Assembly: GCA_025362705.1 (NCBI GenBank)
Contig: JANYFH010000073.1
Span: forward strand, 1 to 43,569
Reading direction: 5' to 3'
DNA: 43,569 nucleotides
Source: Betaproteobacteria bacterium
Lineage (GTDB): Bacteria > Pseudomonadota > Gammaproteobacteria > Burkholderiales > Usitatibacteraceae
Shown here: positions 7,620 through 38,695 of the stretch, piece by piece
How the letters are laid out: every line of letters starts with the position of its first letter
Numbering within the stretch: position 1 is the stretch's first letter
The notes under the pieces: model-generated
What the model saw: the letters and a program-made list of their open reading frames with translations, nothing else
What the model was told of the DNA's origin: nothing
Databases searched by the model: none
Program-made: the position numbers and the translations under genes

Positions 7620-8456
7620 TTGCATTGCACCGTGTATAAGAGTTCCACTCAATCCATTCCCGAGGTAAGCGATGTGCCTCGTCATGTCGCCATCATCATG
7701 GACGGCAATGGCCGATGGGCCAAGCAACGATTCATGCCGCGTGTCGCAGGGCACAAGCGCGGTGTGAGCGCGGTGCGCGAAACGGTCAAGGCTTGCGGTG
7801 ATCTGGGCATTGAGTATCTGACGTTGTTTGCGTTCTCCAGCGAGAACTGGCGCCGTCCTGCCGATGAAGTTTCGGTACTCATGCAATTGTTCGTGGGGGC
7901 ACTTGAAAACGAAGTTGCCAAATTGAACGACAACAAAGTCCGTTTCAAGGTAGTCGGCGATTTGGCACCCTTCGATGCACGTATCCGTGAACTGATTGCA
8001 AGGGGCGAAGATCTCACCAAAGATCACACCAAGCTCACCTTGACAGTGGCGGCCAACTACGGCGGGCGCTGGGATATTTTGCAGGCAGCCAATCGGGCGC
8101 AAAAGGAAAAACTCCAGCAAACACGGGCTTCGCAGGCGATAGATGCTCCGGAAGCCTCGCCAATACTAGAGTTTGCCGAAATTACCGAAACAGAGCTGGC
8201 ACAGCATCTCTCCATGGCTTATGCGCCAGAACCGGATCTTTTCATTCGCACCGGCGGCGAGGAGCGCATCAGCAATTTTCTGCTCTGGCAGTTGGCGTAC
8301 ACCGAATTTCATTTCACCCAGGAACTCTGGCCGGACTTCGGTCGTGAGAGCCTGTTGAAGGCGATCGATTCCTATCGCCAACGCGAACGGCGATTCGGCC
8401 GCACCAGCGAGCAATTGGTGTCGTCCAAAACGACCGCCGATGCCAACGTCGCGTAG
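7620..8456 (+). CDS. uppS: Ditrans,polycis-undecaprenyl-diphosphate synthase
   Basis: [29 protein letters not shown] and [21 protein letters not shown] motifs. The start is uncertain: TTG 7620 or GTG 7632. Confidence 0.93.
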
Positions 8457-9364: not shown

Positions 9365-10570
9365 GTGAAAATCAGAAACGTCACCGTCCTCGGCTCCACC
9401 GGTTCTATCGGTGTCAGTACGCTCGATGTAATTGCGCGGCACCCTGATCGCTTTCGCGTTTTTGCTTTATCCGCGTCCTCACGTGTCGAAGAACTCGCAT
9501 TGCAATGCGAAAAATTTCACCCACGCTATGCCGTTATTGCGGACGAGACTTGTGCCGACGCGCTACGCGTGCGCCTGAAGAGGGCAACTTGTGACACGGA
9601 AGTGTTGGCAGGTGAAAGTGCTCTCTCCGAAATTGCTGCGCATGCCGACACTGATGTTGTGATGGCGGCTATCGTCGGTGCTGCCGGTTTGCCCTCGTCG
9701 CTCGCTGCTGCGCGCGCGGGCAAAACTGTGCTGCTCGCCAACAAGGAAGCATTGGTGATGGCAGGGCAAATTTTTATGAATGCGGTAATCGAGAATGGCG
9801 CGACACTGTCGCCAATCGATAGTGAGCACAACGCGATCTTTCAATCGTTACCACGCAATTTTGGCGATGGTCTAACAAAAGTCGGCGTACGCAAAATCAT
9901 ACTTACCGCATCCGGCGGGCCATTTCGCACACGGTCGATCAACGAGCTACACGACGTCACACCGGATCAGGCGTGTGCCCATCCGAATTGGGTGATGGGT
10001 CGAAAGATTTCTGTTGATTCGGCCACCATGATGAATAAAGGACTCGAAGTCATTGAGGCGCATTGGTTATTCGATGCACCTGCGGAAATGATTGAGGTTG
10101 TGGTTCATCCGCAGAGCATCGTGCATTCAATGGTCGAATATCTTGATGGCTCAGTGATGGCGCAACTGGGCAACCCCGATATGCGCACGCCGATTGCGTA
10201 TGGATTGGGCTTCCCCGATCGTATCAATGCCGGCGTTGGCACGCTTGACTTGGCGAAAGCGGGCAAACTCGAATTCGTCACTTTGGACGCCGAACGGTTT
10301 CCGTGCGTGCGCCTCGCGTACGAAGCGCTAAGGTTGGGCGGTACCGCACCAGCTGTACTCAATGCCGCCAACGAAGTTGCGGTCGATGCATTTTTGAGTG
10401 AAACGTTGTCGTTCACCGATATTCCGCGCGTGATTGAAGATGTTCTGCACGGTACCGCAATCACGCCTGCGACGACGTTGAGCGATATTATTGATGCCGA
10501 CTGCAATGCTCGCGTGGCGGCTCGTGAACGAATTGCGCGTTCGCCCCTCCAACGCACTGCGGCCAAATAA
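9365..10570 (+). CDS. dxr: 1-deoxy-D-xylulose 5-phosphate reductoisomerase
   Basis: [23 protein letters not shown] is an NADPH-binding N-terminus, followed by LANKEALV and [11 protein letters not shown]. The GTG at 9365 lies just after the cdsA stop. The track start 9323 would overlap cdsA. Confidence 0.95.
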
Positions 10571-11968: not shown

Positions 11969-14272
11969 ATGCGCTTCAACAATACCTCCAAATTGCTTTC
12001 GGCTCTTCTTGCCGCTTTATTTTCCGCCGCTGCACTCGCGATCCAACCGTTCGTAATCAAAGACATTCGTGTCGAGGGTGCGCAACGCACCGAAGCCGGC
12101 ACGGTGTTCAGCTATCTACCGGTCAAGGTCGGTGAGAGCATGGATGACGACAAGGCTGCAGCAGCGATCAAGGCGCTGTACGCGACCGGCTTTTATTCCG
12201 ACGTGCGCCTTGAAGTGGAAAACGACGTGCTCATCGTTTTTTTGGTGGAACGCCCGGCAATTTCGCAGATCGACATTAACGGTGCCAAGGAATTCACCAA
12301 GGAGAACCTGAAAGACGGTTTGAAATCGGCCGGAATATCCGAAGCGAAAATTTTTGATCGTTCAATTCTGGACCGCGCCGAAAAAGAGATCAAACGCCAG
12401 TACACCAGCCGCGGCTTTTATTCAGCAAAAGTAACGACGACGGTGACGCCGATTGAGCGCAACCGCATTTCATTGACATTCACCATCGAGGAAGGCGAAG
12501 TTTCAAAGATTGTCGATATCAACATTATCGGCGCGTCCGCATTTTCCGAATCAACCTTGCTTAAGGAGTTTGAACTCACCACTGGCGGCTGGTTTACCTG
12601 GTTTACAAAAGATGACCAGTACTCCAAGCAGAAGTTGTCGGGCGACCTCGAAAAACTAAAGTCCTATTATCTGAATCGCGGCTATCTGGAGTTCAACATT
12701 GAATCGACGCAGGTATCGATTACACCGGATAAAGAGAAAATTTACATCACCGTTAATATTACCGAGGGCCCGGTTTATAAAGTTACTGACATCAAGTTTC
12801 AGGGCGAGTTGAAAATTTCCGAAGAAGAAATGCGCTCGCTGTTGTTATTCAAGTCTGGCGAGACATTCTCGCGCCAGAAAATTGTCGATTCGGTCAAGCG
12901 CATCAGTGATCGCCTTGGTAATGACGGCTACTCGTTCGCCAATATCAATCCGGTGCCAGAACCGGATCGGGCCAGCAAGACGGCGTCGTTTACGATGTTT
13001 GTCGATCCCGGCCGCCGCGTCCATATTCGCCGCATAAACGTGCAAGGTAACTCGCGTACGCGCGACGAAGTGATTCGTCGCGAAATGCGCCAGTTGGAGT
13101 CGGCATGGTATTCGAATGAGAAAATTGCACGCTCAAAAGAAAGGCTGGAGCGCACCAGCTTTTTTGAAGATATCACCGTGGACACACCTTCCGTTCCGGG
13201 TTCCAACGATCAGGTAGATTTGAATGTGACCGTCAAGGAGCGCAATACAGGTAGTTTGCAATTTGGCGTTGGTTATTCAAGTGCGGAAAAATTGACAATA
13301 AGCGCCTCGGTCTCACAGGCGAACATTTTCGGTAGTGGTAACCAACTTTCGTTTCGCGTCAATAACAGCACCATCAGCAAAGCCTATGAGGTCTCTTACC
13401 TGAACCCTTACTGGACGGTCGATGGTATCGCCAGAGGGTTTGACGTTTACCAGCGTGATCTCAATACCTCCACTCTGACAACGGGATCATATAACTCGAC
13501 GTCCACAGGTGTGGGAGCGCGATTTGGGGTGCCCGTCACCGAATACGATGGCGTAAATTTTGGCCTTGGTGCGGAACGCACCAAGCTGGGACTGGATGCA
13601 GCCAGCCCGCAGCGCTATATCGATTACGTCAACACGTTCGGAAGCAAGAGCGACACGTTGCGCGGATCGCTCGGATTTTCTCGTGATACGCGTGACAGCA
13701 TCTACTTTCCGAGAAGCGGATACCTGATCGAAATAGGTGGCGAGATGGGCTTGCCCGGGGGCGACGTGAAATTTTATCGCCTGCAGACGAAAGCACAATA
13801 TCTTCGTCCAATCTGGGGGCCGATCGTTCTTAACGTCAATGCCGAATTTGGCTATGCGAACGGCTATGGGGGCAAACCTCTGCCTTTTTTCAAGAATTTT
13901 TATGCCGGTGGCGTCGATTCGGTGCGCGGTTATCAGCAAAGTACGTTGGGGCCACTGGACATCAATAATCAGGCGCTGGGTGGTAACCAGCGCTTCGTTG
14001 CCAATGCAGAATTCCTCTTTCCACTGCCAGGCACCAAGTCCGACAAATCGGTGCGTCTTTCGGTTTTTGCAGATGCGGGTAATATCTTCGGTGTGGATTT
14101 CCGTGGAAACCGGCAAAAATTCTATATAAACGATATGAAAACATCGGTTGGCGTTGCGGTAAGCTGGTTCTCACCGGTCGGCCCGTTGAAATTCAGCTTG
14201 GCAAAACCGCTGAACGTGAGGCCGGGGGATCAGATCGAACGATTCCAGTTCTTGCTTGGGCGAGTATTCTGA
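11969..14272 (+). CDS. bamA: Outer membrane protein assembly factor BamA
   Basis: 767 aa. Signal peptide ending AAALA, POTRA-like repeats, and a C-terminal beta-barrel ending QFLLGRVF. It follows rseP as in the conserved cluster. Confidence 0.96.
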   Translation: MRFNNTSKLLSALLAALFSAAALAIQPFVIKDIRVEGAQRTEAGTVFSYLPVKVGESMDDDKAAAAIKALYATGFYSDVRLEVENDVLIVFLVERPAISQIDINGAKEFTKENLKDGLKSAGISEAKIFDRSILDRAEKEIKRQYTSRGFYSAKVTTTVTPIERNRISLTFTIEEGEVSKIVDINIIGASAFSESTLLKEFELTTGGWFTWFTKDDQYSKQKLSGDLEKLKSYYLNRGYLEFNIESTQVSITPDKEKIYITVNITEGPVYKVTDIKFQGELKISEEEMRSLLLFKSGETFSRQKIVDSVKRISDRLGNDGYSFANINPVPEPDRASKTASFTMFVDPGRRVHIRRINVQGNSRTRDEVIRREMRQLESAWYSNEKIARSKERLERTSFFEDITVDTPSVPGSNDQVDLNVTVKERNTGSLQFGVGYSSAEKLTISASVSQANIFGSGNQLSFRVNNSTISKAYEVSYLNPYWTVDGIARGFDVYQRDLNTSTLTTGSYNSTSTGVGARFGVPVTEYDGVNFGLGAERTKLGLDAASPQRYIDYVNTFGSKSDTLRGSLGFSRDTRDSIYFPRSGYLIEIGGEMGLPGGDVKFYRLQTKAQYLRPIWGPIVLNVNAEFGYANGYGGKPLPFFKNFYAGGVDSVRGYQQSTLGPLDINNQALGGNQRFVANAEFLFPLPGTKSDKSVRLSVFADAGNIFGVDFRGNRQKFYINDMKTSVGVAVSWFSPVGPLKFSLAKPLNVRPGDQIERFQFLLGRVF

Positions 14273-14310
14273 TGCAATTTTCGATGCGATTTTTCAAAGA
14301 AGGTCGAGAT

Positions 14311-14811
14311 ATGGCTAATTCCCTGCGCCTGATGGTCGTCTGTCTCACGCTCGTGACTTCCATGTGTGCCATGGCTGTCGAGACGAAGGTAGGCTTTGTC
14401 AATCGCGAGCGGATACTCCGTGAGGCCGCGCCTGCGAAACGGGCGCAGGTCAAGCTCGAGAAGGAATTTGCGAACCGTCAGACGGAATTGAACAAGATGG
14501 AAAAACAGGGGCGCGACCTTGAGGCGACGTTACAAAAGGAAGCCGTGACCTTGCCGGAAGCCGAGCGTGTTGCCAAGGAACGACAGCTCGCGCAACTTAC
14601 TCGCGATTTTCAGCGCATGCAAAGAGAGTTTCGCGAGGACCTGAGCTTGCGTCAGAGCGAGGAATTGTCGTCACTACAAGAAAGAGCCAACAAAGTGATA
14701 AACGAAATCGCGGAAAAGGAAAAATTCGATTTGATTCTGCACGAGGCAACCTTCGCGAGTCCAAGAATCGATATTACGGACAAAGTTATCAAGGCGCTCG
14801 CTGATAAATGA
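14311..14811 (+). CDS. skp: Periplasmic chaperone Skp/OmpH
   Basis: Signal peptide MANSLRLMVVCLTLVTSMCAMA, then a coiled-coil Lys/Glu/Gln-rich sequence. Position between bamA and lpxD. ATG 14311 with upstream GAAGG. Confidence 0.9.
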   Translation: MANSLRLMVVCLTLVTSMCAMAVETKVGFVNRERILREAAPAKRAQVKLEKEFANRQTELNKMEKQGRDLEATLQKEAVTLPEAERVAKERQLAQLTRDFQRMQREFREDLSLRQSEELSSLQERANKVINEIAEKEKFDLILHEATFASPRIDITDKVIKALADK

Positions 14812-15034
14812 CCTTTACTTCGCGATTGTTGAATCTTTGCGAAATATACGAATCCAAAAAAGCCTATGGAATTGAAACCATTTGTTTCAGCATCATTCGC
14901 CGCAAAGACTGGCGGCATTTTGATGTGGTAGATTGAAATAGTGTTGTGCGAGTCGCACGATGCCGAGTGAGCCAAACGAGATGTTTGGCGGGAAACAAAG
15001 ATTACTTACTGTTTTTTTACTTTTCGAGATAACT

Positions 15035-30440: not shown

Positions 30441-31790
30441 ATGAGCAAAGTATTTACAGATGCCAAGTCCGCACTCACCGGACTACTTCACGACGACATG
30501 ACCATTGCTGCCGGCGGCTTCGGCCTCTGCGGCATTCCGGAAAACTTGATCGGCGCGTTGGTGGAAAGCGGCACCAAAGGTCTCACCATCGCGGGCAACA
30601 ATGCCGGCGTCGATGATTTCGGCATGGGGCTGTTGCTGAAAACGAGGCAGGTCAAAAAAGTCATCGCCTCCTACGTGGGCGAGAACAAAGAATTCGAGCG
30701 TCAGGTATTGGCGGGCGAGCTCGATTTGCAATTAGTGCCACAAGGCACGCTCGCAGAAAAATTTCGCGCAGGTGGCGCCGGCATCCCGGGCTTTTATACG
30801 CGCACCGCGTTCGGTACCAAGCTCGCCGAAGACAAGCACACGCATAACTTCGACGGCAAAGAATACGTACTCGAAGAAGCGATCCGCGCAGATTTGGCAA
30901 TAGTGAAAGCTTGGAAGGGCGACAAAGCCGGTAATCTGGTCTATCGCAAGACCTCACGCAATTTCAATCCGATGATTGCCACCTGCGGCAAAGTTACTGT
31001 GGCCGAAGTGGAGCAATTGGTGGAAGTCGGCGAACTCGATCCGGATCAAATTCATACGCCGGGGATTTTCATCGACCGCATTATTCAGGGCGCTAAATTT
31101 GAGAAGCGCATTGAATTCCGCACCGTGACAGGTGGAGCTGCATCGAAAAAAGATTCACCGATTCGCGACCTCATGGCCAAGCGCGCGGCGCTGGAATTGC
31201 GCGATGGCTATTACGTCAATCTCGGCATCGGCATTCCGACGCTGGTGGCCAATTACATTCCCGCAGGCATCACGGTAAATCTGCAATCGGAAAATGGTTT
31301 GCTAGGCATCGGCCCGTTTCCAACCGAAGATGCGGTCGACCCGGATCTGATCAACGCGGGAAAGCAAACGATCACCACGATTGCCGGATCGAGCTTTTTT
31401 TCCAGCGCCGATTCATTCGGCATGATCCGTGGCGGCCATATCGATCTATCCATTTTGGGCGGTCTTGAAGTTGCCGAAAACGGCGACCTCGCCAACTGGA
31501 TGGTGCCAGGCAAAATGGTGAAGGGGCCGGGCGGCGCGATGGACTTGGTGTCCGGTGTGAAGCGCGTCGTGGTGCTGATGGAGCATTGCTCCAAAGACGG
31601 CGCGTCGAAGATTCTGAAATCCTGTTCGCTACCGCTGACCGGCAAAGGTGTGGTGAACCTCATCATCACCGACCTGTGCGTATTCGAAGTGAATCTGCTG
31701 GTGGGCCTCTCGCTGATTGAATTGCATCCGGGCGTTACGTTGGAAGACGTTAAAGCGAAAACAGAGGCGGCGTTTCGCGTGGCATTGTAG
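30441..31790 (+). CDS. Succinyl-CoA:3-ketoacid CoA transferase, subunits A and B fused in one polypeptide
   Basis: The N-half has GGFGLCGIPENLI, SYVGENKEFE and PQGTLAEKFRAGGAGIPGFYT (ScoA-like). The C-half has YVNLGIGIPTLVANYIP, LQSENGLLG, MIRGGHIDLSILG and GPGGAMDLV (ScoB-like with the catalytic SENG Glu). They are joined by a short Ser/Lys/Ala linker with no stop. GGAG lies 7 nt before ATG 30441. Confidence 0.88.
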   Translation: MSKVFTDAKSALTGLLHDDMTIAAGGFGLCGIPENLIGALVESGTKGLTIAGNNAGVDDFGMGLLLKTRQVKKVIASYVGENKEFERQVLAGELDLQLVPQGTLAEKFRAGGAGIPGFYTRTAFGTKLAEDKHTHNFDGKEYVLEEAIRADLAIVKAWKGDKAGNLVYRKTSRNFNPMIATCGKVTVAEVEQLVEVGELDPDQIHTPGIFIDRIIQGAKFEKRIEFRTVTGGAASKKDSPIRDLMAKRAALELRDGYYVNLGIGIPTLVANYIPAGITVNLQSENGLLGIGPFPTEDAVDPDLINAGKQTITTIAGSSFFSSADSFGMIRGGHIDLSILGGLEVAENGDLANWMVPGKMVKGPGGAMDLVSGVKRVVVLMEHCSKDGASKILKSCSLPLTGKGVVNLIITDLCVFEVNLLVGLSLIELHPGVTLEDVKAKTEAAFRVAL

Positions 31791-31880
31791 GTTGGGTTAG
31801 ACGCGCAGCGTCGTGGCCCAACAGCGGTGTCTACATTTACGGACGCATGTTGGACTACGGCTTCGCCTAACCCAACCTAC
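31787..31880. repeat. Inverted pair of REP-like units between convergent genes (probable bidirectional terminator)
   Basis: Unit A (31787-31823) reads GTAGGTTGGGTTAGACGCGCAGCGTCGTGGCCCAACA. Unit B (31849-31880), reverse-complemented, reads GTAGGTTGGGTTAGGCGAAGCCGTAGTCCAACA. The TAG stops of both flanking genes lie inside the terminal GTAG/CTAC. Confidence 0.75.
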
Positions 31881-32929
31881 CGCGGTGCTTTCAATTCTTC
31901 TGGTATCGCAAAATCAGGGTAACGCTTGCGGAACCTGGCGAGTTCATCCTCAAATTCACGTGTTCTTTCAAGCTGCTTTAATTCAAGGATACGTTTCATC
32001 CAGACATCAGGCGGTTCGTTTGCCTTGTCTGCGAGGAGTGATGGCACGGCCGGCGCTGCCGGCACCGCATAAACCGGTGGTGCCATTGCAGCATTGCCCG
32101 CCACAATTGAGGGTTTAGGTGCAGCAGCCGGTGTGGCTGCCGCCACCGATTTTTGCAGCGCCGTCGATCCGGCATCGCCCCGCGCAGCAGCCATTGATGC
32201 GGCCTGCGGCACAAGCTGTTTGATTTGCAGCGCTTCGCGTTTTGCGGTGTCTGCCGTACTTTGGCTGGCGCTTTCCTGCCTTGCAGCTGCTTCGGCAACT
32301 GGCGGCGCAGGCACAAATGGTGCGACTGTAGGGCTTGCGACTGCACGGTCCGAATCCTTCGCCACCAGGTTGCCCGATACAGCGCCACCGACTTCGTTGC
32401 GACGTCTCTCCAGATCCGGCTTGGCGGACGGCGCAACCTGATCACGTGACGCTACACTCTGCAGATCGAGCCGCACCTTTTTCTCAGCCGTACGCGCGGG
32501 TTGCGGCAAATCCGATGCGATCACCGCAGCTGGAGCAGCACTCTCAGGCGCGGGCATTGGCGGCGCCACAGGCGCTGGAATGGACAATGCCGCAGGCGGC
32601 ATGACGACTTTCGGCTTGGCCACTTCTTTGAGCGATGCGGGCGCCAGATCGGGTTGTTCATCTATCGCGATCAATCCGACCGAAACGGAGAGCACGACCA
32701 GCGCAGCGGCCGAGAGCGGCGTAGACCAGCGCGAGATCCACGATTTGTTGACCGCATGCGGTTGCGATTTCACCGCGCGCCGTGCCGCTGCGCGAATGGC
32801 GTCATCCATTGCACCAGATGGCAAGTCCATTTCAGTGTTTTTGTATGCGCCCGACATCTGCGCAAGATCGCGTTCGAACTCGTCGTGTTGACCGCCGCTG
32901 CTATCGCTATTTTTGGTGTGATCGCTCAT
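31877..32929 (-). CDS. Putative anti-sigma factor (single-pass membrane protein, Ala/Pro-rich periplasmic region)
   Basis: 350 aa. The ATG overlaps the sigma gene stop (ATGA). About 65 aa are cytoplasmic, followed by one TM (WSTPLSAAALVVLSVSVGLIAI), then a long low-complexity A/P-rich region and a C-terminal helical segment, WMKRILELKQLERTREFEDELARFRKRYPDFAIPE. The function is assigned by position only. Confidence 0.6.
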   Translation of the reverse strand: MSDHTKNSDSSGGQHDEFERDLAQMSGAYKNTEMDLPSGAMDDAIRAAARRAVKSQPHAVNKSWISRWSTPLSAAALVVLSVSVGLIAIDEQPDLAPASLKEVAKPKVVMPPAALSIPAPVAPPMPAPESAAPAAVIASDLPQPARTAEKKVRLDLQSVASRDQVAPSAKPDLERRRNEVGGAVSGNLVAKDSDRAVASPTVAPFVPAPPVAEAAARQESASQSTADTAKREALQIKQLVPQAASMAAARGDAGSTALQKSVAAATPAAAPKPSIVAGNAAMAPPVYAVPAAPAVPSLLADKANEPPDVWMKRILELKQLERTREFEDELARFRKRYPDFAIPEELKAPR

Positions 32930-33501
32930 GCGTATTCCGCCAATCCATCGCGCAGTTTAGCGACCGCGTAACGCAAGCGGCTTTTTGCAGCCTCAAACGA
33001 TACGCCCGTCGCCTGCGCAATTTCTTCGATACTTAACCCGCTCTCTTCGTAAAGCAGGAAAGCTTCACGCTGCGGTGCAGGCAGAGCGCCAAGCAAGCGC
33101 AGAATCGCGTCGCCCTGCTGGCGTGCTTCGGCCTGCACCTGCGGCTCAACTGTACGACTGGCGATGCCCTCACTGGGTTCAATTTCGCCGTCTGTGCCCT
33201 TGACTTCATACAACACCGCCTCGGCACGTGCATTGCCCCGAAAATAATCCATCAATTTATTGTGCGCGAGCGTGTACAGATACGTGCGGAACTGCGCTTC
33301 CACGCGATACCGTTCAGCCGCTTGAATCAGGCTCATCCAAACGTCCTGGAAAATTTCTTCTGCACGCTCGCGTACGCGACACTGCCGGGTAATGAAACGA
33401 AATAACGCGCCGCGATGACGCGCGTAGAGTTCGTCAAACGCCGCTGCGTCACCGGCTTGGTAACGCAGCATAAGCGTCTCATCAGTATCATCATCAGTCA
33501 T
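32926..33501 (-). CDS. RNA polymerase ECF-type sigma-70 factor
   Basis: LMLRYQAGDAAAFDELYARHRGALFRFI (region 2.1), FQDVWMSLI / RTYLYTLAHNKLMDYFR (region 2), and REAFLLYEESGLSIEEIAQATGVSFEAAKSRLRYAVAKLR (region 4 HTH). The start is ATG 33501, or GTG 33546 overlapping the upstream stop. Confidence 0.9.
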   Translation of the reverse strand: MTDDDTDETLMLRYQAGDAAAFDELYARHRGALFRFITRQCRVRERAEEIFQDVWMSLIQAAERYRVEAQFRTYLYTLAHNKLMDYFRGNARAEAVLYEVKGTDGEIEPSEGIASRTVEPQVQAEARQQGDAILRLLGALPAPQREAFLLYEESGLSIEEIAQATGVSFEAAKSRLRYAVAKLRDGLAEYA

Positions 33502-33539
33502 CCTGCCCGCGAGTTTAATCCAACCCCGGGCAAGCGCAC

Positions 33540-34385
33540 TTACCACCGGCTCGGCGGAGCAGGCACAAAATGTTGCGGGAACGGGTTTGGCTCACGCCGG
33601 GGTAAAAAAGTGTCACGGATGATGCCGCGCGCGATCAGATTTGCGCGACTGTCGTAGTAGATGGCGACGACTTCCTCGGGATTACGCGTTGCGCGCTCAA
33701 AATTCACCGCGCGGGCGTGGGATGTTTCGGTGCGCCCGTAGCCGGTGCCGATGGGACTATCCAGCGCTGGTGCGGCTGGTGCCTGCATCGATACAGACGG
33801 CGCGCCTAGTGCCTTGGCACTGGCGCTGCGTTCGGCACGATTGCTATCATCATTTTCTATGCGTCCCTGATCGCCACGTTCGGTGCTGTCCTTCTTCAAT
33901 CGTCCTTGCGGTGCGTAGTTCAACTGCACTTCATTCGCGCCCGATTCGATTTTGCGTCGATAAAGCGCGACCCCGATCACGCCCAAATTTTGCGGACGCC
34001 CGGTGCGCGGTGCGTAAGAATCGGCCAGCGTTGTGAAATAAAATGCCGCGGTGCTCGAATAGCTATTGCGCCATCCGGTCACATCGAGGCGTTTCCATTG
34101 GTCGATCACGTAGCCGCCTTGTGATGGTGCTGCCGTTTCACCAGTAACGGCATTGACGCCATCCACCGATACAACGGCGAGCACATCCTGTCCGGATTGA
34201 TTGCGCAAAACGATCTGATACTCATTGCCGGGCTTCCCCTCAACGTATGCACGACCTTCGTGCCAATACACGTCGAGCGTGCGCTGCTGGTGACGATCAA
34301 CGATGCTGAGATCGGCAATGTGGCCGATGGCAAAAGTCTCCGTAGCGGCAAAAATCAGAACTGCGCTTGCGATGATTCGTTTCAT
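33540..34385 (-). CDS. Secreted protein of unknown function
   Basis: Signal peptide MKRIIASAVLIFAATETFA. AAGGAGA lies 6 nt before ATG 34385. A beta-rich N-domain (YVEGKPGNEYQIVLRNQSGQDVLAVVSVDGVNAVTG) is followed by a charged low-complexity linker and a short C-terminal domain. I recognise no family. Confidence 0.7.
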   Translation of the reverse strand: MKRIIASAVLIFAATETFAIGHIADLSIVDRHQQRTLDVYWHEGRAYVEGKPGNEYQIVLRNQSGQDVLAVVSVDGVNAVTGETAAPSQGGYVIDQWKRLDVTGWRNSYSSTAAFYFTTLADSYAPRTGRPQNLGVIGVALYRRKIESGANEVQLNYAPQGRLKKDSTERGDQGRIENDDSNRAERSASAKALGAPSVSMQAPAAPALDSPIGTGYGRTETSHARAVNFERATRNPEEVVAIYYDSRANLIARGIIRDTFLPRREPNPFPQHFVPAPPSRW

Positions 34386-34437
34386 GATGTTCTCCTTGGT
34401 TGCTTCCAGTATTCCCTTTGGGAAAAGGGGAGGAAAT

Positions 34438-37434
34438 TCACTTCTCACTCACTTCAAACTCGCCTACGAACACCGTCTCCGCGCGGCCTTTCAACCGTAG
34501 CGTGACGATCTGCTCCTGCTGTTCAACCAAGCCGAATTTAGTTGCGAGCTTTACCTGCAATGTCGTCACGCCGGTGATGTTCTGACGGCGATCACCGAAG
34601 TAATGCGCTTCGACTTTGTACTTGCCGGGCTTGGCGCGTTTCAATGAAAATTCTTCGGGTCCGTACCCGCCGGTGAAATCGAGTGACATGCGACCACCTT
34701 GATAAGTCATCCGATGGCCGTAGAACGCCTTTTCACCATCCGGATCGGTCACCCACAAGTCGATGTCGGTATTGTCGGCGTCCCAGGTCAGGATCACGCG
34801 CAAATCCAGCGGAAGATTTTTGAGTAAACGCTGATCGATGCGGCTGGTATCGAGTTTTTCTTTTGCCGTGGCAACGATGCTGTTCAGTTCCGCCAATGTG
34901 ATCAGCTCAATTTCCGGGAAGCGTCCATGCCAGGGGCGGACAACGACTTCAACCAGTGTGTTGATCGCTTTCTGCGCCTGCTTGTCCGCTGCATACGCAA
35001 GACCAAGATCGCGATACGACTGCGGTTCTTCCGGGCTCAACACCAACACTTTCTTGAACACCGGAATCGCAATTGCGGGTTGACCTGCCTGCATCAGGCG
35101 GTAGCCGAGAATGCGCAGGATGTGGCGATTCTCCAGATCCATTTCGGCGAGATTGCTGAGTACCCGCACGCCGAGTGTGTTCAATCCCTTATCGAAAAAC
35201 AGATCGGCTGCATCGAGGTAAAACGCCGTGCTGCTGAGATAGCCGGGCTTTTCATCGAGGTAGATGCGATACATATCCGCTGCGGTCGCATCGCGCAGAC
35301 GCGCTGCATAGGGCGCATCTGGCTGCCATTTTTGCAACTGGATGCTGGCTGTAGTGATCGGCGACGCGGCGGATTTTGATGTGGTTTGCGCTGCGCCTTC
35401 TGCGGGTCTCGCCATTGCGGGCGGTGCATACACTGGCGGTGCCGTGGCCGCCGCGCTGGCCATGTTTGCACGCATCGCAGGTGTGGCGGGCGCAGCGTTC
35501 GTTACCGACTTTGCGAGTTCGCGCAATTCGGTGCGCTGATCCACACGATCCGCCGTACTGCGCTCGCTGACCTGACCGACTACGCCGGGCGCACTGATTT
35601 TCACTTCCTGTTTAAGTGCGCGATCTTTCGGAAAATCGCGATTCCACCACGCTGTCTTTTCGGCAAACAAACGCACGATGGTTTCAAGATGTGATTTGCG
35701 CTCTGCTACTCGTTGCTGCGCCGTACTCGCCAGCAGGCGTTGATAATCTGCGCGCATCTCAATGGGTGGGACGATTTCATAGCGTACGTAATCTTCAATT
35801 CGATCCAGCACGATCAGCGAGGTCTCGCGTGTCACCAAACCGAAGCTGCTACCAAGCCTGCGAATCTCCGCACGGTTGAAATCGTATGCGCCCTCCAGTT
35901 CGGCGATGCGCGTGCGCGCCCACAGCGCGGCGGCAAGACTGCCATGCGCCTGACTGTGCCTTAGCGGTAACGTGACGACCTCGGTCTTCCCGCCGGGCTG
36001 CACCATACTTACTTGCAATGTGGTTGCTGCTTCGGTGAGGATTCCGGCAATCGAAATGCGGCCCTGTTCGGGATACGGTGAGGACATCACAATTTGCTGC
36101 GCGCCGTCGGCATCGATGCCCGCTATACGCGTTACCGCGAAGGTCAGTTTGCGGGCGGCATCAGTGGACGTTTCTGCAGTGAGGTCGATAAAACGGCCCC
36201 CATTGCAATACGCCAAATATCTGAGCGCCACCGCGTCTGTCTTCACTGCAGCCGAAATCGCATACAGCGGTACGCGCAGCGCGGGGAAAGGCTGATCGCC
36301 AAAATTGCCCAGGCCATCGCTAAACATCAGGACTTCACGTACTTCGTTGTCCGGCACATACGCGCCAAGATTGGTCGCGCCGTCGTAGGCAGTGTCTTTT
36401 AGGGCATCGCGCAATTCGCGCCAACTGCCATTGGTAACAACGAAACGCGCAACCGGCTCGGCCACATCGCGTATGCGCGTGAGGCGCACTTCGCCATTAC
36501 CCATTTTCTGGAAGTACGCATCCAACAATGCCAGTTCACGCGCATGATCGCGCGTCGCGCCGCTGCCGGAGCTGTCCCAGATCAGGCTGATGAGGTTTGG
36601 AATTGCGCGCGGTGCTTCACGCGATACGAGGGAAACATCGGCATGGAAATAAGTCCTGCCGTCGAAAACCTGTGTAGTGATTTGCGGACTGTTGCTCGGG
36701 GCGATTTCTACATTGAGGATGCCACGACCTGCGAAATCAGTGCGCTGAGCTTGTGCGCGAAATCCGTCGTTGGTGCGATTAAACACGAGCGCGCCGAACG
36801 CAATCGAAGTCGTCGTCGGCGCGGGCATTTTTATAAGCGCGGCGTTAGCGACATTCACATCGACTGAAAACGTACCAACCCGCTCCGCGTATTCAATCGG
36901 CACACTGTAGACGATACGGCCCTTGTGTTCAGACAGCGTCTCGCTGATACGTAGCACTACCCGTTTTGTTCCTGATGCGGGAATCGGATAAACGCGCAAC
37001 TTGAAGTTATTGCCTTGCGTCACTTCCAGCAATCCAGGATCTATGCGACCGCGAATCACTTCCTCGAATACTGTCTGCCCGCGTGCCTTGTCTACCGGTA
37101 CCGCCTCGCGCATGGCACCGTTCACGTCCATCGCAAAGCTCGCCACGTTCTGCCCATCGAGCAACGGAAACTGCAATTCGCCTTCGAGAATACGCGCGTT
37201 CGGATTGAAGAACGTCATCTCCAATTCCGTAAACGCCAATCGCCCGCTGACCTCGCCGCGAATTCGAACCGATTGCAATTGCACAGGCAGATCGGTGCGT
37301 ACGGGAATGACCAGTCGGGGTGGAATCCAGATTTTTGGCTGAGACGGCTGCGCTTGCGCGTGCGGTATCAAGCCAAGGCATGCAGCGAAAATAGGTACTG
37401 CGAAGGAAAGTGCGCGGGGCGTAAAAAGTTTCAC
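34438..37434 (-). CDS. Exported multidomain protein: VIT-like N-domain, vWA domain with MIDAS, TPR-like helical region, DUF2135 (YfaP C-terminal)-like domain
   Basis: Signal peptide ending HAQA. VIT-like block LQSVRIRGEVSGRLAFTELEMTFFNPNARILEGELQFPL...FKLRVYPIPASGTKRVVL. vWA block LIWDSSGSGATRD (DxSxS) ...YDGATNLG...MFSDGLGN. TPR-like block YRLMQAGQPAIAIPVFKKVLVLSPEEPQSYRDLGLAYA. C-terminus LRVILTWDADNTDIDLWVTDPDGEKAFYGH...GGYGPEEF...PGKYKVEAHYFG. The start is GTG 37434 (GGAGA 5 nt upstream) or GTG 37446. Confidence 0.85.
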   Translation of the reverse strand: MKLFTPRALSFAVPIFAACLGLIPHAQAQPSQPKIWIPPRLVIPVRTDLPVQLQSVRIRGEVSGRLAFTELEMTFFNPNARILEGELQFPLLDGQNVASFAMDVNGAMREAVPVDKARGQTVFEEVIRGRIDPGLLEVTQGNNFKLRVYPIPASGTKRVVLRISETLSEHKGRIVYSVPIEYAERVGTFSVDVNVANAALIKMPAPTTTSIAFGALVFNRTNDGFRAQAQRTDFAGRGILNVEIAPSNSPQITTQVFDGRTYFHADVSLVSREAPRAIPNLISLIWDSSGSGATRDHARELALLDAYFQKMGNGEVRLTRIRDVAEPVARFVVTNGSWRELRDALKDTAYDGATNLGAYVPDNEVREVLMFSDGLGNFGDQPFPALRVPLYAISAAVKTDAVALRYLAYCNGGRFIDLTAETSTDAARKLTFAVTRIAGIDADGAQQIVMSSPYPEQGRISIAGILTEAATTLQVSMVQPGGKTEVVTLPLRHSQAHGSLAAALWARTRIAELEGAYDFNRAEIRRLGSSFGLVTRETSLIVLDRIEDYVRYEIVPPIEMRADYQRLLASTAQQRVAERKSHLETIVRLFAEKTAWWNRDFPKDRALKQEVKISAPGVVGQVSERSTADRVDQRTELRELAKSVTNAAPATPAMRANMASAAATAPPVYAPPAMARPAEGAAQTTSKSAASPITTASIQLQKWQPDAPYAARLRDATAADMYRIYLDEKPGYLSSTAFYLDAADLFFDKGLNTLGVRVLSNLAEMDLENRHILRILGYRLMQAGQPAIAIPVFKKVLVLSPEEPQSYRDLGLAYAADKQAQKAINTLVEVVVRPWHGRFPEIELITLAELNSIVATAKEKLDTSRIDQRLLKNLPLDLRVILTWDADNTDIDLWVTDPDGEKAFYGHRMTYQGGRMSLDFTGGYGPEEFSLKRAKPGKYKVEAHYFGDRRQNITGVTTLQVKLATKFGLVEQQEQIVTLRLKGRAETVFVGEFEVSEK

Positions 37435-37780
37435 GATGTTCTCCACTTTATTGAGGGGGGATACATCGTTAAACGGTGGGGTTGCGGGAAAGGGTTAAAG
37501 CAGATTGAATATTTTTTTGGGGAGGTATGCTTGCGTGGCAAGTTAGAATGGCAGCAGTAAAAAAATCGGCTATACGGATGCGACGGTCATAATCATGGTG
37601 AATACCCGTGGCCAGCGACATTCGTGGTCGTCTACGCAACTTGCGCTGGTGGTCAGTAATCGATACAAAAAGCCAGTTAGCGCGTGAGGCGGTACGCTAC
37701 GCGCCACTTACCAAAATTAGACTTGCCGTCGAATCGTCCGAATCAACAAATATTTGCACCCCGCTCAATGAGGTAACCAA

Positions 37781-38695
37781 ATGAGCATTGAACCGCGCTC
37801 CCCCACGTTTTACGCATGGCTCTCAGTTGGCACCTCACTACTGACAATCGCACTAAAATTCACCGCGTGGGGAGTCACCGGGTCGGTTGGACTTTTGTCG
37901 GACGCGATCGAATCGCTGGTCAATCTTGCCGCTGCGCTTGTCGCGTTGTGGACGCTGCACTACATCGCCGGTGGCAGCGATGACGACCACAACTTTGGCC
38001 ACGAGAAGGCCGAGTATTTTTCCAGTGGCATAGAAGGTGGACTGATTTTTGTTGCAGCCATTGCCATTGTGATTAGCGCAATGCCGCGCCTGCTCGATCC
38101 GCAGCCGCTGGGCGAGTTGGGTTTGGGTATCGTGCTAGCCGTGCTGGCAGCGATTGCCAACGCGCTGTGTGCGTGGTTTCTGCTGAAGGGCGCGCGCCTG
38201 CACCGCTCGATCACGCTGGAAGCCGATGCGCAGCATTTGCTTGCCGACGTGTGGACAACCGTCGGCGTGATTGCCGCGGTACTGCTGGTGCCGGTCACCG
38301 GCTGGTGGCGACTCGACCCGATCGTTGCGATCCTCGTTGCGTTGCAAATCCTCTGGACGGGCGGGGTGTTGATCAAGCGCTCCTTCGATGGATTGATGGA
38401 CAAGGCGATTCCCGACGATGAGCGCGCGGCCATTGTGCGCGTGCTTGATCGATTGCGGCACGAGGGCTGCGACTATCACGCGCTACGCACGCGCCAGGCG
38501 GGACGCAAGCATTTTGCCGACGTGCATGTATTGGTGCCCGGTACCATGAGTGTCCGCGACGGCCACGATTTGGTCGAGCGCATCGAAAATGAAATGCACG
38601 TGCAGGCACCGCACGTGGAAGTGCTGATCCACATGGAACCGCTGGAGGATCCGAGGAGTTGGGACGATCCGAAGAATCCTTTGGCCGGGACGTAA
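37781..38695 (+). CDS. Cation diffusion facilitator (CDF) family metal efflux transporter
   Basis: 304 aa, six TM helices, with LLSDAIESLVN and HLLADVWTTVGV metal-site motifs and a C-terminal cytoplasmic domain. GAGG lies upstream of the ATG. Confidence 0.88.
   Translation: MSIEPRSPTFYAWLSVGTSLLTIALKFTAWGVTGSVGLLSDAIESLVNLAAALVALWTLHYIAGGSDDDHNFGHEKAEYFSSGIEGGLIFVAAIAIVISAMPRLLDPQPLGELGLGIVLAVLAAIANALCAWFLLKGARLHRSITLEADAQHLLADVWTTVGVIAAVLLVPVTGWWRLDPIVAILVALQILWTGGVLIKRSFDGLMDKAIPDDERAAIVRVLDRLRHEGCDYHALRTRQAGRKHFADVHVLVPGTMSVRDGHDLVERIENEMHVQAPHVEVLIHMEPLEDPRSWDDPKNPLAGT

Follow-up and report, generated by a model that had tools for sequence, protein, structure and literature searches.

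Pairs of an extracytoplasmic function (ECF) sigma factor and an anti-sigma factor represent a major mode of bacterial signalling, and most groups of them are without a known signal or regulon. In RpoE-RseA-RseB and SigW-RsiW, the ECF sigma factor gene is followed by the gene of a translationally coupled, single-pass membrane protein, the operon is preceded by a conserved ECF-type promoter that implies autoregulation, and exported proteins are encoded together with the pair. In CnrY-CnrX-CnrH (ECF291) of Cupriavidus metallidurans, a betaproteobacterial host, the gene of a periplasmic protein stands before the sigma gene, and the sigma-binding segment is very short and class II-like. For ECF289, a genetic tie between a vWA-type domain and an ECF sigma factor has been reported, in that the anti-sigma factors combine DUF3520 with a fused vWA domain (Casas-Pastor et al. 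2021, PMC7826278). Each of these likenesses is found in a four-gene cluster on contig JANYFH010000073.1 of a Betaproteobacteria bacterium (assembly GCA_025362705.1), of which we analysed a stretch of 43,569 nt, hereafter the window. We conclude that the cluster is genuine as a module and tied to an ECF sigma factor. We consider that it probably forms a single autoregulated ECF operon, driven by one ECF-type promoter upstream of its first gene, and that the first two products would be its exported (periplasmic) outputs.

The four open reading frames (ORFs) all lie on the minus strand in the same orientation. The first encodes a protein of 998 aa, which we call the giant (34438-37434), from a GTG start after GGAG; an extension to 37446 is possible and would give 1002 aa. 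It is followed by the gene of a 281-aa protein, the partner (33540-34385), the gene of the ECF sigma factor (32926-33501; 191 aa from ATG, or 206 aa from an alternative GTG at 33546), and the gene of a 350-aa fourth protein, the putative anti-sigma factor (31877-32929). A first-pass annotation had described the genes as tightly packed, and reading the junctions confirmed this: the gap between giant and partner is 52 nt, that between partner and sigma gene is 38 nt (a 7-nt overlap with the alternative start), and the sigma gene and the fourth gene share an ATGA overlap. The giant and the partner had also been taken to be exported, and both indeed show Sec-type N-termini when judged by eye, reading MKLFTPRALSFAVPIFAACLGLIPHAQA in the giant, with the break before QP, and MKRIIASAVLIFAATETFA in the partner, with the break before IG.

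By its domain matches, the 191-aa protein is an ECF (group 4) sigma-70 factor. It matched Sigma70_r2 (E=5e-14) and Sigma70_r4_2 (E=6e-13), and reached 99 bits on TIGR02937 against a cut-off of 42.9. The closest NCBIfam model is NF009166/PRK12513, on which it scored 201.5 bits against a cut-off of 206, and on which the sigma factors of two partner-sigma-anti-sigma units from other genomes (L081 and L083) scored above the cut-off, with 214 and 219.5 bits. This sigma group may already be catalogued in the ECF Hub together with its genomic context. In three loci, the family is represented by a further ECF sigma paralog (E ~1e-56 to 1e-66), 2-3 kb downstream of the giant-linked pair (L006, ~14090-14840; L008, ~13190-13870; L012, ~9730-10400).

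The linkage of these genes was compared in two samples. The giant family comprises more than 1,657 cluster-level homologs, and the giant is present in 452 scanned species-representative genomes, mainly of Betaproteobacteria, with some Arenimonas and one myxobacterial metagenome-assembled genome. From these, 80 species loci were fetched, and 65 had enough flank to judge. The sigma/anti-sigma family adjoins the giant in 28 of the 65. The order giant-partner-sigma-anti-sigma occurs in 11 loci and giant-sigma-anti-sigma without the partner in 8; a convergent sigma operon is found in 7 loci of Duganella and Rugamonas, and the sigma pair stands upstream of the giant on the same strand in 1 locus and divergent from it in 1 locus. 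The use of five different arrangements argues for selection for proximity. The other 37 giants have no linked pair, as judged from at least 2.5 kb on both sides in 28 loci and from the downstream side only, the one long enough, in 9. The neighbours of such sigma-less giants (an oxidoreductase, an NHL-repeat protein, Bug-family binding proteins) were considered as module members and rejected, as they look like unrelated housekeeping genes. An ORF clustering had placed partner-like genes after many more giants; these turned out to stem from ORFs read out of frame within the giant gene itself, and a clean partner hidden Markov model found none of them.

The second sample consisted of 80 metagenome loci fetched by the partner profile and two places found by exact look-up. 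In every one of these loci with enough downstream sequence, the partner gene is followed by the sigma gene, and in the adjacent sequence of the 80 loci and the two places no giant adjoins the partner. The sigma gene in turn is followed by the fourth-gene family in 71 of 75 loci when judged by the N-terminal motif of the fourth protein, and in 48 of 52 when judged by its C-terminal motif. The first-pass annotation had expected giant and partner to be recurrently linked to ECF sigma/anti-sigma pairs in other genomes, and both are, the giant in the 28 loci mentioned and the partner wherever there is room. As far as gene order can tell, the common unit is promoter-partner-sigma-anti-sigma with the sigma/anti-sigma pair as its invariant core, and the giant gene is placed separately from this unit and tends strongly, though not in all loci, to adjoin it.

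The promoter motif was found by aligning the regions upstream of giants. In the window, it lies at 37469-37498 on the minus strand, has the form TTAACCC (-35) N17 CGTTTAA (-10), reads GCTTTAACCCTTTCCCGCAACCCCACCGTTTAACGATG, and ends ~35 nt before the giant start codon. For counting, the strict pattern TAACC-N16-18-CGTT was scored within 200 nt upstream of a gene. Of the 75 species loci in which the upstream sequence was long enough, 52 had it before the giant, and 59 of 73 metagenome loci had it before the partner, against a background of 13 matches in 2.99 Mb (0.0009 per 200 nt). Among the matches listed, those outside the upstream regions of giants and partners lie inside long open frames. 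The motif is positioned 30-90 nt before the start codon, and its AAC...CGT form with a spacing fixed at 16-17 nt is the typical shape of an ECF promoter. Giants without a sigma gene within 8 kb, e.g. those of L024-L042, are preceded by the motif as well. A relaxed scan of the window, which covered the 3' end of the giant gene and the two short intergenic gaps, found no second site in or next to the module. In one locus (L070:7227-7900), the order is sigma-anti-sigma, a TAACCC...CGTT motif, a 202-aa lipoprotein-like ORF (..LFLGAC..), and the giant, which indicates that another gene can sit between the ECF-type promoter and the giant. In the Duganella/Rugamonas loci L055, L057, L062, L063, L065, L075 and L076, most of the displayed regions upstream of the convergent sigma gene share a AATATTTGGTAACAATACG element, and the giant keeps TAACCC-N18-CGTT.

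The fourth protein is likely the anti-sigma factor of the adjoining sigma factor. This role is suggested by its gene standing directly after the sigma gene, by the ATGA coupling, by its single-pass topology, and by the conserved pairing of the two families. Its N-terminus is short and cytoplasmic (~65 aa) and contains a conserved helix (..AMDDAIRAAARRAV), for which the family form is PPxA[L/M]DDAIRAAARRA. One transmembrane helix follows at about aa 68-90. In the family, the periplasmic part is a Pro/Ala-rich stretch of variable length (150-300 aa), and the protein ends in a conserved helical motif of ~45 aa (about aa 305-347), W[L/I]xRIxEL..G...E..EL..FR..YP. No match to Pfam, NCBIfam or the PDB was found for the protein, and six relatives were likewise without a Pfam or NCBIfam match; no class I anti-sigma domain (ASD, the anti-sigma domain, or the zf-HC2, RskA and FecR types) was recognisable with these models in any of the seven, and a profile of 27 N-termini of the family found no anti-sigma factor in the PDB. 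The earlier description of the protein as an atypical anti-sigma factor agrees with these negative results.

Based on these results, we consider the following course of events for the autoregulated operon. The fourth protein, single-pass and translationally coupled to the sigma factor, would hold this NF009166/PRK12513-like sigma factor at the inner membrane. An envelope cue would inactivate the anti-sigma factor, probably through regulated proteolysis, by analogy with RseA and RsiW. The freed sigma factor would then take RNA polymerase to the promoter of its own operon, which represents positive feedback, and the two exported proteins would be raised, namely the partner, which belongs to a new beta-sandwich family, and the giant, which resembles the heavy chains of the inter-alpha-trypsin inhibitor (ITIH). 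The partner would be the ancestral first gene of a partner-sigma-anti-sigma operon, and the giant would be a regulon member that in most genomes lies elsewhere behind its own copy of the promoter. In this lineage, the giant lies directly before the partner, and the promoter that precedes the partner in loci without an adjoining giant is missing. As had been pointed out, the cluster is not led by the sigma pair but ends with it at the 3' side; we attribute this to an ancestral order of partner, sigma and anti-sigma genes, before which the giant came to be placed.

Several observations weigh against this reading. About 30% of the loci do not have the strict motif; some of them have a variant, such as CGCTTAAC in giant-sigma-anti-sigma loci and TTCACCCC in another clade (L052-L058), and in some no form of it can be recognised. 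The convergent sigma/anti-sigma operons of Duganella and Rugamonas are not preceded by such a motif, which indicates that autoregulation is not universal. The motif appears tied to this sigma factor by association only, and the fourth protein is without a known anti-sigma domain. Finally, the near-universal linkage of the partner to the sigma pair would also fit a partner that is regulatory rather than an effector.

The last point leads to a serious alternative, in which the partner acts in the periplasm as a co-regulator of the anti-sigma factor, i.e. a modulator or sensor like RseB, CnrX or CpxP, and the giant is the sole true effector. We regard this as possible, although clearly less probable than two exported outputs. 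The linkage of the partner to the sigma pair in essentially every locus with enough flank is the pattern of rseB and cnrX. The AlphaFold2 (AF2) model of the partner, with a mean predicted local distance difference test (pLDDT) score of 68.6, shows a beta-sandwich at aa 24-145 and further strands at 219-245, with a disordered linker, and the C-terminal tail is conserved (..PFP..FVPDPPRRW); tail and linker together are suggestive of a docking peptide. On the other hand, the sigma pair occurs without an adjoining partner in 15 loci, namely 8 of the giant-sigma-anti-sigma order and 7 of Duganella/Rugamonas, and the partner resembles neither RseB nor CnrX nor CpxP and gave no match in the structure search. 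In addition, its place as the first gene behind an ECF promoter fits an output equally well.

The searches with the partner gave little that would place it among known families. It matched no Pfam, NCBIfam or PADLOC model, sequence and profile searches found no relative in the PDB, and no Foldseek match of its model was better than E=0.2, so that it can be described only as a generic Ig-like sandwich. That it is a detached copy of a giant domain was considered and rejected (hhalign probability 0.2%). Nevertheless the family is large, with at least 6,292 matches in a word-indexed search and 5,280 representatives at 50% identity. Distant relatives of the N-terminal sandwich were seen in Klebsiella aerogenes between speA and speB (L165:4659-5387) and in Burkholderia stagnalis (L166:4743-5522). 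They share 32-37% identity over ~100-140 aa and are annotated as hypothetical lipoprotein or hypothetical protein in Enterobacteriaceae and Burkholderia; no sigma gene adjoins them, and no Pfam or NCBIfam model covers them.

The giant is composed, in order, of a signal peptide, an ITIH-like VIT-vWA unit with a metal ion-dependent adhesion site (MIDAS), a coiled coil with a disordered linker, a TPR-like domain, and a DUF2135 beta-sandwich of YfaP type. The VIT domain (36952-37278, minus strand; aa 53-161) had been proposed before and is borne out by Pfam PF08487 (E=2.3e-19, 70.1 bits against a cut-off of 26.5); in the PDB profile search, a profile of giant homologs also gave a weak match to the VIT region of ITIH4. 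The vWA-like alpha/beta domain (36130-36603, minus strand; about aa 278-435) carries the MIDAS residues D287-x-S289-x-S291, T354 and D373. No Pfam vWA model matched giant residues 276-601 even at E<=10, and there was no precomputed Pfam vWA match among 120 giant homologs. An AF2 model was built on 51 homologs (pLDDT 78.7; predicted template modelling score, pTM, 0.75), and in this model pLDDT exceeds 90 across residues 280-480 and strands and helices alternate in the vWA region (pLDDT >90 over residues 280-435). Its top Foldseek match is the ITIH1 heavy chain 6fpy (E=2.6e-22, 588 columns). Among the 51 homologs, there is no variation at D287, S289, S291 and D373, and T354 is nearly invariant (>=90%). 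Because of the ITIH1 structural match and the conserved MIDAS, the VIT-vWA-MIDAS assignment is right at fold level, and the vWA domain with an intact DxSxS MIDAS is thus upheld by the predicted fold and the conserved residues, not by Pfam.

The TPR-like helical domain follows at about aa 700-860 (34855-35337, minus strand). Its best TPR match in Pfam, TPR_16, remained below the gathering score (24.6 bits against 32.7); support for these helices comes from a MamA profile match (E=9e-7, PDB profile search) and from the AF2 model, in which the helices at residues 708-856 match MamA and consensus TPR (CTPR) structures in Foldseek. The C-terminal beta-sandwich (34450-34809, minus strand; about aa 876-995) matched Pfam PF09906, i.e. 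DUF2135, above threshold (E=3.2e-16, 59.6 bits against 22) and shares 38% identity over 117 aa with the C-terminal part of E. coli YfaP (BLASTP, E=4e-28), in agreement with the likeness to YfaP that had been noticed. In E. coli, YfaP is annotated as DUF2135 and is encoded in the yfaA-yfaT-yfaS-yfaQ-yfaP operon. Bacterial alpha-2-macroglobulins are roughly 1,500 aa or more in length; the giant is the only ORF of at least 800 aa in the window, and no alpha-2-macroglobulin gene or other yfa gene of a yfaS-type operon was found there. From the modelled fold, metal-dependent ligand binding through the MIDAS is a plausible function of the giant. In one clade (L024, L025, L027, L030-L033, L035, L037-L039, L041 and L042), the giant homolog starts with MNRRNFL..., a signal of the twin-arginine (Tat) type (at about locus position 7990 in the loci with 8-kb flanks). 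Export of a folded, possibly metal-loaded MIDAS protein by the Tat route may matter in some lineages; the giant of the window is of the Sec type.

The first-pass annotation had preferred to see in the giant a device for capture or surveillance, with its state reported by way of the anti-sigma factor. In such a case the giant, with or without the partner, would be the sensor, and binding of a ligand, protease or surface by its MIDAS and TPR parts would be relayed to the periplasmic part of the anti-sigma factor and would control release of the sigma factor. The fusion of anti-sigma factor and vWA domain in ECF289 (PMC7826278) gives a precedent for vWA-based input to an ECF sigma factor, the giant adjoins the sigma/anti-sigma pair in 28 of 65 loci in five arrangements, the helical, repeat-like modules in the giant and in the anti-sigma C-terminus could interact, and outputs can feed back on their own regulator. 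However, in the ~80 loci fetched with the partner no giant stands beside the sigma pair (adjacent sequence only), unlinked giants keep the ECF-type promoter, which is the signature of a target gene, searches found no fusion or interaction evidence, and the C-terminal motif of the anti-sigma factor is unchanged whether the giant or partner adjoins or not. We therefore consider a sensor role unlikely. Since the motif is kept without a nearby sigma gene, and since partner-sigma-anti-sigma units exist without an adjoining giant, the giant would be an output rather than an obligatory sensor. No result points to the surveillance device; the giant behaves as a target gene, and the simpler fallback that had been offered with it, an ECF-autoregulated envelope structure, fits the evidence better.

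That TTAACCC-N17-CGTT is read by some other regulator or sigma factor, with the adjacency arising from co-regulation by something else, is very unlikely: the association by which the motif is linked to the sigma factor and the Duganella-type sigma operons without the motif would allow it, but a bipartite AAC/CGT form with a fixed spacing of 16-17 nt is a hallmark of ECF promoters, and the motif precedes the sigma-encoding operon in 59 of 73 loci as well as the gene most often beside that sigma gene.

Returning to the proposed autoregulated operon in the window, its borders could be described as follows. The gene upstream of the module is divergent and cation-efflux-like, with its start at 37781. 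The intergenic region had been given as 334 nt, which holds when it is counted from 37446; counted from the GTG at 37434, it is 346 nt. The gene downstream is that of a CoA-transferase, convergent to the anti-sigma gene. Between these two convergent genes there is a long imperfect inverted repeat (31787-31880, no strand assigned), which overlaps the anti-sigma stop codon and whose arms form a perfect 14-nt inverted repeat (31787-31800 / 31867-31880). The predicted fold of its RNA has -55.1 kcal/mol (z=-4.8), and the repeat may act as a hairpin at the transcript end. It had been called a REP-pair (repetitive extragenic palindromic) terminator. The strong hairpin or inverted repeat is present; the labels REP and terminator go beyond the evidence. 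The hairpin is followed by no T-run, a terminator scan gave no terminator-like site at 31780-31890, and the repeat sequence occurs as the two arms only in the 43.6-kb window and in 0 copies in 166 fetched loci, so that both labels are unproven. Rfam gave no match in the module region, and PADLOC defence-protein models matched none of the four module proteins.

Two further gene families were seen near the giant in other genomes. A small secreted family stands directly after the giant, in the place of the partner, in Sterolibacterium, Oxalobacteraceae and Herminiimonas (L061:11218-11739, L067:4411-5235 and L069:11053-11613). Its members have a ~170-aa core (PRLALWITD...CFVLA.DGK...ALDLQL) with 50-57% mutual identity and no Pfam match. 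In about a dozen loci, among them the L024-L041 clade, the giant has as its divergent neighbour the gene of a secreted, ~390-aa NHL-repeat protein, which ends ~100-160 nt upstream of the giant, and an NHL-like gene with only faint Pfam matches is located just after the partner-sigma-anti-sigma unit of L081 (10985-12163). No motif was seen on the strand of the NHL gene.

From these results, a large uncharacterised ECF family gains a testable promoter motif, a two-member candidate regulon, and an anti-sigma type that was unmatched in Pfam, NCBIfam and PDB searches. Two proteins of unknown function gain a regulatory context as well: the ITIH-like VIT-vWA-TPR-DUF2135 giant, and the partner family, with more than 5,000 clusters at 50% identity and no Pfam model. 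In culturable Duganella, Rugamonas and Collimonas, the giant adjoins the sigma pair, and the predictions are therefore directly testable. Our literature searches found no paper on the module, on the function of DUF2135/YfaP, or on the promoter. A wider interpretation, which we offer as speculative and rather doubtful, is that the locus would be the founding example of an extensive and so far unstudied system of envelope signalling, found in Betaproteobacteria from soil and freshwater and in some Gammaproteobacteria. In this case, a new class of anti-sigma factor would span the periplasm on a Pro/Ala-rich tether, and the small dedicated regulon, i.e. the partner family and an ITIH/integrin-like MIDAS giant with its YfaP domain, would act as an inducible device of the periplasm for capture or defence, directed e.g. 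at proteases of foreign origin or at other proteins that invade the envelope, and possibly feeding back on the anti-sigma factor.

The comparison with the systems named at the outset can now be completed. In contrast to RpoE-RseA-RseB and SigW-RsiW, the putative anti-sigma factor has no ASD, zf-HC2 or RskA domain, its cytoplasmic part is only ~65 aa, and it extends as a Pro/Ala-rich tether that ends in the 45-aa helical motif; moreover, the sigma gene is second or third rather than first, and the accessory protein is unrelated to RseB. Compared with CnrY-CnrX-CnrH, our searches detected nothing similar in sequence to CnrX or CnrY, the genes stand in another order, metal-efflux genes are absent, and the anti-sigma factor is much longer. 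Unlike in ECF289, the vWA protein is separate, exported, provided with its own ECF-type promoter and not part of the anti-sigma factor, and there is no DUF3520. ECF16 sigma factors pair with multi-pass anti-sigma factors of the NrsF/DUF1109 type and are not known to pair with a single-pass protein. The giant shares with ITIH1 (6fpy) the fold of its N-terminal ~600 residues (VIT, vWA with MIDAS, and a C-terminal sandwich) and an intact DxSxS..T..D, but the sequence identity is 15%, the coiled coil and the TPR-like and YfaP-type domains are additional, and there is no bikunin or hyaluronan context. With E. coli YfaP it shares a homologous C-terminal beta-sandwich, whereas YfaP is without the VIT, vWA and TPR parts and the window is without yfa genes. 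As for the promoter, those of ECF16 (SigF/EcfF-type), tGTAACc-N16-CGAA, have a similar -35, with the core TAACC, and a similar spacing, but a -10 of CGAA in place of the CGTT found here (PMC3420878). On the one hand, then, an ECF sigma/anti-sigma operon with exported regulon products is a well-known kind of system, and the locus overturns no concept. On the other hand, the type of anti-sigma factor, the partner family, the ITIH-like regulon member, and the motif that links them appear to be new.

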